Below are positions 24,382-29,317 of a stretch of 64,000 nucleotides of DNA, piece after piece. The stretch is from positions 160 through 64,159 of the forward strand of contig JAQYVW010000008.1 of assembly GCA_030145325.1 (NCBI GenBank), given 5' to 3'. The translations under genes and the position numbers were made by a program. The notes under the pieces were generated by a model. The model was not told the origin of the DNA. It ran no database searches and saw only the letters and a list, made by a program, of their open reading frames with translations. Each line of letters opens with the position of its first letter. Position 1 is the stretch's first letter. Source of the stretch: Desulfurivibrionaceae bacterium. GTDB lineage: Bacteria; Desulfobacterota; Desulfobulbia; Desulfobulbales; UBA5123.

Positions 24382-25128
24382 TTAACCCATAAACATTCCA
24401 CCATTAACATGAATAACCTGCCCTGTCACATAACGAGCCTCATCTGAGGCCAGATAGGCAACCGCGCTGGCAATATCTTCAGGCTCGCCAAGCAGTCCCA
24501 TGGGGATCTCAGAGAGTACCTTATTCTTAACATCTTCCGACAGTTCACTGGTCATATCGGTGACGATATAGCCGGGGGCCACCGCATTTACCGTTACCCC
24601 ACGCGTAGCAAGCTCACGGGCAGCCGACTTGGTCAGCCCCATCAAACCCGCCTTGGCAGCAGAGTAGTTGGCCTGACCGGCGTTACCGGAAAAACCCACC
24701 ACCGAGGTAATGTTGATAATTCGCCCACCGCGCTGCTTCATCATTGGCCGGTAAGCAGCCTTGATACTGTTGAATGCGCCCTTGAGATTGGTATCCATCA
24801 CCTGATCCCAGGCTTCCTCTTTCATTTTCAGCAGCAAACCATCACGGGTGATCCCGGCATTGTTGACCAGAATATCAATCCGGCCGCAGTCCGCCAACAA
24901 CTTTTTGAAAGCATCCTGCACCTGGGTCGCGTCGCCAATATCAAACTGGATGGTAAAAGCATCGCCACCAGCTTCCTTGATGGTGGCCACCGTATCATCC
25001 GCCGCATCGGGACGGCTAACATAATTAACTGCCACTTTTGCGCCCAAGGCGGCAAGCTTCAAACAAACAGCCCGGCCAATGCCCCGGCTACCGCCGGTGA
25101 CCAACGCAATTTTTCCACTCAAATCCAT
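24382..25128 (-). CDS. fabG: 3-oxoacyl-ACP reductase
   Basis: Motifs TGGSRGIG, NNAGITRD, GQANYSAAK and VNGG. ATG overlaps the etfA stop (TAATG). Confidence 0.97.
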   Translation of the reverse strand: MDLSGKIALVTGGSRGIGRAVCLKLAALGAKVAVNYVSRPDAADDTVATIKEAGGDAFTIQFDIGDATQVQDAFKKLLADCGRIDILVNNAGITRDGLLLKMKEEAWDQVMDTNLKGAFNSIKAAYRPMMKQRGGRIINITSVVGFSGNAGQANYSAAKAGLMGLTKSAARELATRGVTVNAVAPGYIVTDMTSELSEDVKNKVLSEIPMGLLGEPEDIASAVAYLASDEARYVTGQVIHVNGGMFMG

Positions 25129-26318
25129 TATCCCTTCCTCTCGTTCAACTTTGCGGTGAGTTTCGGCAAGATCTCAAACACATCGCCCACCAGCCCGTAG
25201 GTAGCGACATCAAAGATCGGCGCATGCGGGTCTTTATTAATGGCAACGATGGTCTCAGCCGACTGCATGCCGATAACATGCTGGATCGCCCCGGAAATCC
25301 CGGCCGCGACATATAATTTGGGAGCAACGGTCTTGCCGGTCTGGCCCACCTGGTGGGGATAGCCAACCCAACCGGAATCAACAGCGGCCCGCGAAGCGCC
25401 CACTGCGCCTCCCATGGCGTCAGCAAGATCCTTAACCAATTGAAATCCTTTCTCGCCGTCAAGGCCACGGCCACCGGCAACGACAATCTCCGATTCAGTG
25501 ATATTGGCCTGCTCGCTTTCAGCAATGACGGACTCAATCACCTTCACCCGGGATTGCATCCGCATGGCCAGAGGAGTTACCGTAATTATTTCACCCTGCC
25601 GAGTATCATCTGCCGCCCGGGGCGTCATCACCAAAGGCCGAACCGTGGCCATCTGGGGCCTGGTATCCGGGCAAACAATGGTAGCCATGATATTACCACC
25701 AAAGGCGGGCCGGGTCTGCAGTAAGGCCCCGTCTTCCTTGCGAATGGCAAGATCGGTACAATCGGCGGTGAGCCCAGCCCCAAGAATAGTGGCAACCCTG
25801 GGGATCACAGAACGGCCAATGGCGGTGGCTCCGGCCAGGACAATCTCCGGCTGATGCTCACGAATCAGATCGGTGAGAACATTACCATAAGCATCATCGG
25901 TAAAATGAGCAAAAGCGGGGTCATCGGCTACATAAACAGTATCTGCGCCGTGGGCAACTAGATCTTTAGCAGTATCGCCAAGCTCGCTACCAAACAAAAC
26001 TGCGGCCAGTTTAACCCCACGGGTATCAGCCAACCCGCGACCGGCACCAAGTAACTCCATGGTCACTGGCGTAATCCGACCGTTGCGGTACTCAGCAAAA
26101 ACCCAAACCCCCGACCATGCCACCAGGTCAACTTGATTAACTTTTGTCTCTCGCTCAATGACCATGGCGTCAACCTCGCAGTTGTCGACGCAAGAGCCAC
26201 AGAGGGTACATTTTTCATTGACCACCGGCTGCCCATCTTCCATGGTGATGGCCGCAAAAGCACAATTGGCCTCGCAAACGCCACAGCCAATACAGGTATC
26301 AAGATCTATTTTCAGCAT
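25128..26318 (-). CDS. etfA: Electron transfer flavoprotein alpha subunit with N-terminal 2[4Fe-4S] ferredoxin domain (CarE-like)
   Basis: [11 protein letters not shown] and [41 protein letters not shown] and GISGAIQH. Confidence 0.94.
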
Positions 26319-26335
26319 AATTTCCGTTATTCCGT

Positions 26336-27115: not shown

Positions 27116-28269
27116 TATTTCTTGCCGTATTCCTTGTTCAACTCTTGACCGATGACGTTGCGCTGAATCTGGTTGGTGCCCTCGTAGATCTGGAGGATCT
27201 TAGCATCGCGCATCATCTTCTCCACCGGGTATTCACGCATATATCCATAACCGGCCAAGACCTGCACTGCGTCGGTGGTGACCTTCATCGCCATGTCAGT
27301 GGCCATTACCTTGCACATGGAGGCAATCTTTGAGACCCCGGTCTTATGGGTATCAACATTGCGGGCGGTGGCATACACCAGAGCCCGAGACGCTTCCAGC
27401 TGGATGGCCATGTCGGCAAGGATATGCTGCACGGCCTGAAAGGATATAATCGGTTTATCGAACTGGACCCGCTGCTTGGCGTAGGTAACCGCCTCATCCA
27501 AAGCACCCTGACCAAGGCCAAGGCCCAAGGCGGCAATGCCAGGGCGAGACTGATCAAGGGTGCGCATGATGGTGATAAAGCCGGTGCCCTGGCGACCAAT
27601 CATTCGATCCTTGGGTATCCGACAATCCTTGAAGATTAACTCACGGGTGGAGGAAGCACGAATGCCGAGCTTTTTTTCTTTAGCGCCGTAAGAGAACCCT
27701 TCGTCAGTATCCTCAACCACAAACATGGTGGCCCCACGCGGACCTTTGGCGCGATCGGTAATGGCGATGACGGTATAGATATTGGCTTCACCGGCGTTGG
27801 TGATCCACTGTTTGGTGCCGTTAAGCACCCAATGATCGCCATCAAGTTCGGCGGTGGTCTGAATGCCGGAGGCATCGCTACCAGCGTTGGCCTCGGTGAG
27901 AGCAAAGGCGGCATATTTCTTACCGCTGGCAATCTCGGGCAGATATTTTTGTTTTAATTCATCACTGCCGGCAATCAACATCGGATAGGCACCCAACGCA
28001 TTGGCGGCAAAGGCGGTGGCAATCCCCACACACCCCCGGCCAAACTGCTCAAGGGCCAGAACCATATCAAAACAACCACCACCGAAACCACCATACTCCT
28101 CGGGAATGTAAAGTCCGAAGAGATCGGCTTGAGCAATGGTTTGCAAAATAGCGTCGGGAAATTCTTCCTTCTCGTCCAACTCAGCCCGCTGCGGAATGAT
28201 CATCTCATCGGTGATCTGCCGGGCCACGTCAACGATCATCTCTTGTTCTTCACTCAGGAAATAATCCAC
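27115..28269 (-). CDS. Acyl-CoA dehydrogenase family protein (Bcd/CarC-like)
   Basis: Motifs FALTEANAGSDA, LNGTKQWITN, KLGIRASST, RVQFDKPI and GYGYMREYPVEKMMRDAKILQIYEGTNQIQ. Probable GTG start at 28269 (track start 28317). Confidence 0.95.
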   Translation of the reverse strand: MDYFLSEEQEMIVDVARQITDEMIIPQRAELDEKEEFPDAILQTIAQADLFGLYIPEEYGGFGGGCFDMVLALEQFGRGCVGIATAFAANALGAYPMLIAGSDELKQKYLPEIASGKKYAAFALTEANAGSDASGIQTTAELDGDHWVLNGTKQWITNAGEANIYTVIAITDRAKGPRGATMFVVEDTDEGFSYGAKEKKLGIRASSTRELIFKDCRIPKDRMIGRQGTGFITIMRTLDQSRPGIAALGLGLGQGALDEAVTYAKQRVQFDKPIISFQAVQHILADMAIQLEASRALVYATARNVDTHKTGVSKIASMCKVMATDMAMKVTTDAVQVLAGYGYMREYPVEKMMRDAKILQIYEGTNQIQRNVIGQELNKEYGKK

Positions 28270-28339
28270 GCTTGTGTCCTTGTCTCTTTGCGGCGCAATT
28301 CCTTCAAATAGTTGCACCTTTTGAGGCCTGAAACCAACC

Positions 28340-29317
28340 TTACCAGCGCATCACCGCAGCACCCCAGGTAAAGCCGCCCCCGAAAGCGCAAAAAAGAACC
28401 AGATCACCAGGCTGCAGGCGACCTTCACGGTTAGCTTCATCAAGGGCAATAGGCATACTAGCCGCCGATGTATTACCATACTTATGGACATTTATATAGA
28501 TTTTTTCAGCACTGATTCCCAACCGTCCGGTCAGGCTGTTAAGGATCCGAATATTGGCCTGATGCGGGATCACCAGCTTCACCGATTCGGGAGCAACATC
28601 CTCCTGCGCCAGCACCTTGACCACCCCGTCCTGCATGGCCCGAACGGCGTACTTAAACACCTCCTGCCCAGCCATGCGAATAAAGGGGCCATGATAATCC
28701 ACCGGCACCAAATCTGGATTGAGGCTGGGGGCAGCATCCATATGCAGCAGATGCCAGAGACTGCCATCGGCAAAAAGACGGCTCCCCAAAATACCGCGCT
28801 CACCTTCACCGCCACCCATCACCACCGCGCCAGCGCCATCGCCAAAGAGGATACAGGTGGAGCGATCCTCCCAGTTGGTGCGGGCAGAAAGATTTTCCGC
28901 GCCAATTACCAACACCTTGAGGGCGGGATCAGCCTTAATATATTTTTCGGCAACATCCATCCCGTATAAAAAACCGGAACAGGCGGCATTGATATCCAAA
29001 GCAAAGGCATTAACCGCGCCGATTTCTTTCTGCACCAGACAGGCGCATGACGGCATCACCTTTTCGCAGGTCATGGTGCCAACAATGATCAGACCGATTT
29101 CTTCAGCACCAACACCGGCCATTGCCATGGCTTTACGGGCAGCACCAGACGCCAGCTTTGAGGTCTCTTCCCCTGCTCCGGCAATCCGTCGCTCCTTGAT
29201 GCCGGTACGAACGGTGATCCACTCATCGGAGGTTTCAACCATTTTTTCAAGTTCAGCGTTGGTCAATGTCCGTTTGGGCAGACAGGAGCCAGTGCCAAGG
29301 ATAGCCGCCCGCTTCAT
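28340..29317 (-). CDS. fabH: 3-oxoacyl-ACP synthase III
   Basis: Motifs TSDEWI..RTGIKERR, AACSGF, PHQAN, GNTSAAS and FGGGFTWG. Confidence 0.97.
   Translation of the reverse strand: MKRAAILGTGSCLPKRTLTNAELEKMVETSDEWITVRTGIKERRIAGAGEETSKLASGAARKAMAMAGVGAEEIGLIIVGTMTCEKVMPSCACLVQKEIGAVNAFALDINAACSGFLYGMDVAEKYIKADPALKVLVIGAENLSARTNWEDRSTCILFGDGAGAVVMGGGEGERGILGSRLFADGSLWHLLHMDAAPSLNPDLVPVDYHGPFIRMAGQEVFKYAVRAMQDGVVKVLAQEDVAPESVKLVIPHQANIRILNSLTGRLGISAEKIYINVHKYGNTSAASMPIALDEANREGRLQPGDLVLFCAFGGGFTWGAAVMRW

Follow-up and report, generated by a model that had tools for sequence, protein, structure and literature searches.

The stretch analysed here, a window of 64,000 nucleotides from a Desulfurivibrionaceae bacterium (assembly GCA_030145325.1, contig JAQYVW010000008.1, positions 160 to 64,159), carries the genes of an acyl-coenzyme A (CoA) dehydrogenase (ACAD) and of both subunits of an electron-transfer flavoprotein (ETF) inside a cluster for type II fatty acid synthesis, and our analysis points to this three-gene module as a candidate enoyl-acyl carrier protein (enoyl-ACP) reductase of the electron-bifurcating kind. 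The list of open reading frames (ORFs) and family scans give one minus-strand string, yceD-rpmF-plsX-fabH-ACAD-etfB-etfA-fabG-acpP-fabF-rpiB-glyA-nrdR-ribD; the gene names were confirmed by Pfam and NCBIfam, and PlsX, FabH, FabG, AcpP, and FabF passed the curated cut-offs. The eight central genes are:

29314..30357, minus strand: plsX, phosphate acyltransferase (TIGR00182, 359 bits, above cut-off)
28340..29317, minus strand: fabH, beta-ketoacyl-ACP synthase III (NF006829, 422 bits, above cut-off; sole genomic copy)
27115..28317, minus strand: ACAD-family flavoprotein, proposed enoyl-thioester reductase subunit (three ACAD domains in Pfam)
26336..27115, minus strand: etfB, small ETF subunit, bifurcating type (Pfam ETF; PDB similarity)
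25128..26318, minus strand: etfA, large ETF subunit with N-terminal 2x[4Fe-4S] ferredoxin domain (Fer4, ETF, and ETF_alpha domains)
24382..25128, minus strand: fabG, 3-oxoacyl-ACP reductase (TIGR01830, 343 bits, above cut-off)
24071..24298, minus strand: acpP, acyl carrier protein (NF002149, 114 bits, above cut-off; sole copy found)
22577..23824, minus strand: fabF, beta-ketoacyl-ACP synthase II (TIGR03150, 653 bits, above cut-off)

That these genes follow one another in this order on one strand was the starting claim of a first-pass annotation of the window, and the ORFs on the minus strand agree with it. Also present in the sequence are the two TAATG stop/start overlaps that it had pointed out, between the ACAD gene and etfB (at 27115) and between etfA and fabG (at 25128), through which etfB is predicted to be coupled translationally to the ACAD gene and etfA to fabG; plsX and fabH overlap by four bases (ATGA). 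The motifs that it had listed, namely two CxxCxxCxxxC, ADCT, TRPAFGG, MNPYD, GADT, and QAIDGDTAQVGP, were all found in the translations. The true start of the ACAD is probably the GTG at 28269 (residue 17), giving 384 amino acids (aa), which we prefer over 28317 because AAGGA precedes it and the homologs are 382-385 aa long. fabD is not in this operon and was located on contig C72.

In Pfam and NCBIfam, the ACAD, EtfB, and EtfA match only ACAD, ETF, and Fer4 families and have none of the folds or motifs of FabI, FabL, FabK, or FabV. The ACAD falls below the cut-off of every named NCBIfam equivalog, its best match being AcrC, an acryloyl-CoA reductase (400 bits against a cut-off of 640), and the cut-offs of the remaining AcrABC equivalogs were not reached either (AcrB 241/475, AcrA 359/600). 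Its top matches in the PDB are 8I4P, 7W0J, and the Bcd chain 5OL2_C (about 382 bits), short-chain enzymes being the closest, and CarC is its 12th-best match there (308 bits). The YEGT segment of the ACAD aligns with the Bcd structures, and we take its Glu to be the catalytic base; two positions that presumably close the pocket of medium-chain ACADs are Ala here, and one of them (A88 of alignment A1) is invariant, which we regard as a lead and not as a result.

For both ETF subunits, the five top PDB matches are bifurcating ETFs (6FAH, 7QH2, 4KPU, 7KOE, and 5OL2), and non-bifurcating ETFs score at most about half as high as bifurcating ones. EtfB is closest to CarD (6FAH_B, 253 bits), with four other bifurcating ETFs at 219-232 bits and the non-bifurcating ones at about 100 bits or less, and EtfA is closest to CarE (6FAH_A, 406 bits over residues 3-392, ferredoxin domain included); after CarD and CarE come the lactate dehydrogenase ETF, the Acidaminococcus ETF, 7KOE, and the Clostridioides difficile Bcd ETF. 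The EtfB motif DGDTAQVGP, which we assume to mark bifurcating EtfB, is present in 93 of 94 orthologs, and 84 of 90 EtfA orthologs retain both CxxCxxCxxxC motifs. Judged from these similarities, the ETF is of the bifurcating class and has a CarE-like ferredoxin domain, and the likeness to CarCDE asserted earlier is upheld by CarD and CarE being the best solved matches and by the same three-gene order.

The arrangement was followed through a close set (the 80 best ACAD loci in species-representative genomes), an order sample (101 Desulfobulbales), and a phylum sample (401 Desulfobacterota, with ACAD orthologs called from a match at E<=1e-130). In the close set, which comes from Desulfocapsa, Desulfurivibrio, Desulfobulbus, Desulfopila, Electrothrix, and relatives, fab genes directly adjoin the ACAD gene in 75 of 80 loci and the complete eight-gene order is kept in 56; of the rest, three lie on contigs whose length does not allow a call, and two, from Actinomycetota (58% identity), have no fab genes. 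Over those 56 loci, mean identity is 79% for the ACAD, a value biased upwards because the loci were chosen by ACAD similarity, 78% for AcpP, 72% for FabF, 71% for EtfB, 66% each for FabG, PlsX, and EtfA, and 63% for FabH. An ACAD ortholog was found in 99/101 order genomes (72-93% identity) and in 197/401 phylum genomes, representing 111 of 256 genera, and all 20 loci sampled across the families of the phylum sit in an rpmF-plsX...fabG-acpP-fabF cluster, 17 of them with etfBA and seven with fabH (absent in 13). The arrangement is thus conserved far beyond chance. Three of these 20 loci (L174, L176, and L177, from G101, G207, and G177) read rpmF-plsX-ACAD-fabD-fabG-acpP-fabF, without fabH and etfBA; fabD, which sits just before fabG, was confirmed by family scan in L174 and L176. 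A free-standing ACAD-etfB-etfA operon was found among tRNA synthetase genes in a thermophile-sized family (closed genomes, 1.6-1.8 Mb), whose EtfA has no ferredoxin domain.

The distribution of the module was then set against that of known reductases by comparing the ACAD list with the FabI and FabL lists by eye, FabI being called in the order sample at E<=1e-55. Only two order genomes have FabI (G015 and G099, of one genus), and they are exactly the two without the ACAD; their FabI proteins match FabI models only, at 391-413 bits. In G015 (locus L237), fabH abuts fabG in a clean junction with a 150-base spacer. In G099, a three-contig assembly (L238, C1:3144000-3158500), a 1.2-kb gap between fabH and fabG (about 8950-10160) has lost the ACAD gene and keeps fragments of etfB and etfA broken by stops and frame changes. 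Read from these remnants, the genus would be a case of natural replacement of the module by FabI. Across the phylum sample, FabI is present in 68/401 genomes and overlaps with the ACAD in three, against about 33 expected if the two were independent. The three exceptions (G101, G295, and G452) belong to families f16 and f97; G101, the sole exception whose locus was inspected, is the first of the plsX-ACAD-fabD-fabG genomes described above, has no etfBA in that cluster, and carries a FabI above cut-off.

Taken together, these data lead us to propose, with moderate confidence, that the module encodes a bifurcating enoyl-ACP reductase, redundant in this genome with FabL. We consider this the best reading in view of where the genes lie, how old they are, how rarely they coincide with FabI, and the natural replacement event, and it is further supported because the chemistry of the family (a trans-2-enoyl thioester, NADH, and ferredoxin) corresponds to the missing step of the encoded cycle. 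On this view, type II fatty acid synthesis would have taken over a complex of the Bcd/CarCDE type, made up of a dehydrogenase, an EtfB of the bifurcating kind, and an EtfA that carries 2x[4Fe-4S]. NADH would reduce the bifurcating FAD in EtfB, from which one path would lead through the FAD of EtfA to that of the dehydrogenase, where trans-2-enoyl-ACP would be reduced to acyl-ACP, and a second path through the iron-sulfur domain of EtfA to ferredoxin, so that 2 NADH would be spent and one reduced ferredoxin gained per elongation cycle. The complex would work beside FabL here and as the only reductase in many other Desulfobacterota. The order of the genes, their family assignments, the bifurcating type of the ETF, and the conservation and distribution of the module are observed; that the substrate is carried on ACP, that the reaction runs towards reduction, and that it is coupled to ferredoxin is inferred. 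The broader proposal, that ACAD-EtfAB represents an enoyl-ACP reductase of a mechanistically new class, which in about half of the Desulfobacterota would be the principal and frequently the sole enzyme for this step, with every elongation yielding reduced ferredoxin, is tentative, and we would give it slightly less than even credence. Conservation, the near-exclusion of FabI, the loss of the module in one genus, the closed genomes with no other known reductase class, and the failure to find a crotonase or a second ACAD or ETF thus favour the ferredoxin-coupled enoyl-ACP reductase put forward by the first-pass annotation, and the FabL of this genome speaks against it.

Several observations weigh against this reading, and the most direct concerns the genome itself (3.36 Mb in 168 contigs, 97.8% complete). 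The first-pass annotation had started from the lack of any fabI, fabK, fabL, or fabV gene, which is correct for the window, whose part of contig C157 gave no such match and has fabG as its only short-chain dehydrogenase/reductase (SDR) match, but does not extend to the genome, in which a profile search gave FabL on contig C22 and a FabX-like protein on contig C98. FabL lies on a contig of 1818 bases and scores 364 bits against a curated cut-off of 328. Contamination was considered for this contig and rejected, as G001, of the same genus, has the gene at 71.7% nucleotide identity; C22 has DUF362 and Maf on either side of FabL, and by eye a Maf-like ORF likewise comes after FabL in G001. With FabL in the genome, the module can account for no more than one of two reductases here, and enoyl reduction can be explained without it. 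FabL is also above cut-off in 77 of the 101 order genomes, where it co-occurs with the module, and a FabK-family (FabX-like) protein is present in 93/101 and in 5/5 closed genomes tested. Across genomes, the presence of the module is complementary to that of FabI, but it co-occurs with FabL and with FabX-like proteins. The annotation would have given up its reading if the genome held a canonical reductase outside the module and the synteny was not conserved as well; FabL is present, but the synteny is strongly conserved.

Other points on this side concern the substrate and the comparative argument. No sequence feature favouring ACP over CoA was found, and among characterised enzymes those nearest to the ACAD all use CoA esters. 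The anticorrelation with FabI follows phylogeny and may therefore reflect few independent events. In the genus that gained FabI, G015 has an undisrupted FabX-like gene (179 bits, no stop) and G099 one with a single internal TAG, so that more than one gene changed in the lineage of the latter. A clean genome with the module and nothing else was not found among the 101 of the order sample. Four order genomes lack both FabL and the FabX-like protein (G007, G022, G028, and G058), of which three carry a divergent FabI-like SDR and the fourth is a 500-contig assembly. Finally, 42 phylum genomes without ACAD, FabI, and FabL, picked by elimination from the lists, were examined: a FabK-family protein of 200-500 bits is present in 24 (above cut-off in four), only weaker FabK matches in 10, and none in eight, and because these last 18 also have no strong FabK match, other reductases may exist.

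The FabK-family protein of this genome (C98:22342-23325; L001:1459-2442) scores 182 bits against a cut-off of 453 and is almost equally similar to the structures of FabK (142 bits) and FabX (130 bits). Near its C-terminus it has a C-x3-C-x3-C-x4-C pattern that resembles the [4Fe-4S] site of Helicobacter pylori FabX, whose ligands are C300, C304, C308, and C320, in a cluster domain that takes the place of the NAD(P)H site found in FabK (PMC8626469). The same study describes FabX as the unsaturated-fatty-acid dehydrogenase/isomerase of H. pylori, working in the oxidising direction, and FabI as its reductase (PMC8626469). In this genome, only FabZ was found and FabA was not, for which reason the FabX-like protein is best read, by analogy, as an enzyme of unsaturated fatty acid synthesis, although it could itself be a ferredoxin-linked reductase, a possibility that also counts against the module. 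The protein that matches the FabK model in the closed genome G125 is clearly orthologous to FabX: it scores 417 bits against the H. pylori enzyme, and its four cluster cysteines align. By these similarities, FabX-type 'backtracking' synthesis of unsaturated fatty acids may be widespread among strict anaerobes, and one may ask what takes up the electrons of FabX when oxygen is absent.

The remaining candidates were few. FabK above cut-off was found in 0/101 order genomes, and FabV was found neither in this genome nor in the order sample (PF12241) nor in five genomes searched with NF010177, searches in which the control genomes were silent too. In the closed genomes G473 and G125, FabG is the only SDR of the PF13561 type, the FabK model gives scores of only 65 and 82 bits, and FabV was not found. 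Both FabL and FabI are missing from one genus of the order, represented by five genomes; G019 among them is closed, and G030 (100% complete, 1.7 Mb) has FabG and an atypical protein as its only SDRs. In the present genome, this atypical SDR (271 aa, C161:16067-16879, L008:1468-2283) was tried as a hidden reductase and rejected, its context and family being unsupportive and no match to it being found in G473 and G125. It is conserved, with orthologs in many order genomes, G030 with its two SDRs among them, and appears by eye to lack the usual Y-x3-K lysine. Its gene begins within the stop of a gene for an SLT/LysM lytic transglycosylase, the two overlapping there, and is followed by an HD-domain gene.

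The divergent FabI-like SDR is present in G058, G028, G022, G014, and G090 (L135, L136, L133, L225, and L222), has a Y-x6-K pattern, and matches FabI models only (153-170 bits) where scanned (G058 and G022). It adjoins a FabG-like gene in G022 and G090; G014 has a separate FabG-like gene with an ACP-like ORF close by (L213). From this context, the protein may belong to a second, specialised acyl-chain pathway in some Desulfobulbales. Large frames of the polyketide synthase (PKS) type with enoyl-reductase-like domains also occur in the order (e.g., 2604 aa in G058); in the present genome, an acyltransferase domain of the PKS or polyunsaturated fatty acid (PUFA) synthase type lies within a frame of 2520 aa on contig C7 (4926-5744, L234), and a match resembling ketoacyl synthases (KAS) lies at C7:6063-7307.

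Among the alternatives, the one that survives best holds that FabL, or the FabX-like protein where there is no FabL, is the working reductase, and that the module does another job linked to fatty acid synthesis, such as converting saturated acyl-ACP to trans-2-enoyl-ACP for unsaturated synthesis with NAD+ and ferredoxin as partners (reverse bifurcation). The presence of FabL above cut-off here and in most of the order, the near-universal FabK-family protein, and the fact that order genomes without the FabX-like protein have FabL or the divergent SDR, bar the one fragmented assembly, are all in keeping with it, and FabZ without FabA leaves the unsaturated-fatty-acid route open in this genome. 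However, trans-2-enoyl-ACP is already formed in every cycle, so that a back-reaction would need a special reason, and the FabX-like protein, by its homology to H. pylori FabX, already supplies that reaction. The gain of FabI coincides with the loss of the module in G015 and G099, while the FabX-like gene remained intact in G015. FabL, moreover, is restricted to 16/401 phylum genomes, 14 of them with the ACAD, against 197/401 for the ACAD; from the overlap counts of FabI and FabL, about 180 of those 197 genomes have neither. We therefore judge this alternative unlikely, though it deserves more weight than those that follow.

A second alternative is that the complex acts at the CoA level like Bcd-EtfAB, reducing crotonyl-CoA or another short enoyl-CoA and passing a primer such as butyryl-CoA to FabH, as the first-pass annotation had also considered. 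The nearest characterised relatives are indeed butyryl-, acryloyl-, and caffeyl-CoA enzymes, and the ACAD gene follows fabH in this window. Nevertheless, fabH accompanies the ACAD in a minority of the 20 phylum operons sampled, the FabI exclusion is left unexplained, and no supply from a CoA pathway was seen, the neighbours in the cluster being fab genes. A crotonase-family gene was not found in this genome at E<=0.001 (a control was positive in 13/14 known genomes), and none was above the Pfam cut-off in eight of nine other ACAD-bearing, mostly closed genomes, the ninth, G473, having three; MaoC-type hydratases and thiolases were not searched. A primer-supplying role is thus weakened, and we hold it to be quite improbable. 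Least probable by far, and already disfavoured, is an ordinary catabolic ACAD with its ETF (for beta-oxidation or fermentation) placed in the fab operon by accident, as the public annotation of the homologs as acyl-CoA or butyryl-CoA dehydrogenase would have it, since the ACAD and the ETF are the only ones in the genome (one tblastn match each at E<=1e-5 for the ACAD, EtfA, and EtfB, and likewise for FabH and AcpP), crotonase was not found, the ACAD is the sole candidate in many phylum genomes (first-look counts of 1), and the position is conserved across about half of the phylum. The crotonase and copy-number results argue against both beta-oxidation and a route from crotonyl-CoA to a butyryl-CoA primer.

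Returning to the proposed bifurcating enoyl-ACP reductase, its closest counterpart is CarCDE of Acetobacterium woodii (6FAH), with which it shares the order dehydrogenase-EtfB-EtfA and the best solved match of both ETF subunits. CarCDE is accompanied by CoA-activating genes, whereas the neighbours here are fab genes, and the proposed substrate is carried on ACP and not on CoA. The clostridial Bcd-EtfAB (5OL2, 4L1F/4KPU) is similar in the ACAD (about 382 bits to C. difficile Bcd, with the catalytic-Glu segment aligned), in the bifurcating class of its ETF, and in the reduction of a trans-2-enoyl thioester as the chemistry of the family. The differences are that no crotonase partner was found here (thiolase and hbd were not searched), that the module lies inside a fab operon, that EtfA has an extra ferredoxin domain, and that a one-residue insertion in the helix after a conserved Cys of the Bcd proteins is absent from this ACAD. 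With FabI and FabL (SDR), FabK (FMN, nitronate monooxygenase (NMO) family), and FabV, the module would share the reaction and the place in the pathway; unlike them, it has an unrelated fold and cofactor set (a FAD-dependent ACAD plus a two-FAD ETF with iron-sulfur clusters) and a proposed donor scheme of 2 NADH with ferredoxin as co-product. A reductase gene within the cluster has a parallel in streptococci, where fabK lies inside the fab cluster. H. pylori FabX (7E1Q), with FMN and [4Fe-4S] and of the NMO family, is likewise a flavoenzyme at the acyl/enoyl-ACP couple, and FabX or FabX-like homologs, encoded here by a separate gene on C98, co-occur with the module. MbtN, the prolyl-ACP dehydrogenase 4IRN, and PigA/RedW indicate that the ACAD fold is able to use substrates bound to ACP or to peptidyl carrier protein (PCP); these proteins are distant from the ACAD described here (60-247 bits with NCBIfam models, 182 bits to 4IRN) and act as dehydrogenases in secondary metabolism.

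The component families are known and the proposed use is new: neither an ACAD-ETF complex tied to enoyl-ACP reduction nor this operon was found in the literature, in a search whose scope did not take in subscription journals and supplements. If the proposal holds, an unrelated fold and cofactor set would join the four textbook enoyl-ACP reductases, and a housekeeping pathway of anabolism would have electron bifurcation built in. About one reduced ferredoxin per two-carbon elongation would then be regained by sulfate reducers, sulfur disproportionators, cable bacteria, and syntrophs, so that energy-limited anaerobes would gain reduced ferredoxin from the synthesis of their membrane lipids. It would also fill the 'missing FabI' gap in genome-scale models and predict insensitivity to FabI-directed inhibitors, and the reading of lipid hydrogen-isotope signatures could shift, with hydride arriving via flavins.

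The central genes are flanked on both sides by neighbours on the same strand:

31182..31209, minus strand: sigma-70-like promoter match TTGACA-16-TATATT (11/12), upstream of yceD; possible operon promoter, consensus match only
30615..31196, minus strand: yceD, large-subunit rRNA accumulation protein, which usually opens the rpmF-plsX-fab cluster (Pfam YceD, 90 bits)
30362..30553, minus strand: rpmF, ribosomal protein L32 (TIGR01031, 82 bits, above cut-off)
21962-22384, minus strand: rpiB, downstream neighbour kept in most related loci (Pfam LacAB_rpiB)
20558-21814, minus strand: glyA, downstream neighbour kept in most related loci (Pfam SHMT)

Promoter-like sites are not enriched in the region (10, against a mean of 11.7 in shuffled sequence), and the terminator-like sites of the same scan fall inside genes. 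Upstream of yceD, an ORF of 171 aa on the minus strand (window 31244-31759) gave no Pfam match at E<=1e-5. The G+C content is 42-48% in window positions 1-4000, 42000-46000, and 54000-60000, against 50-57% in the rest of the window.

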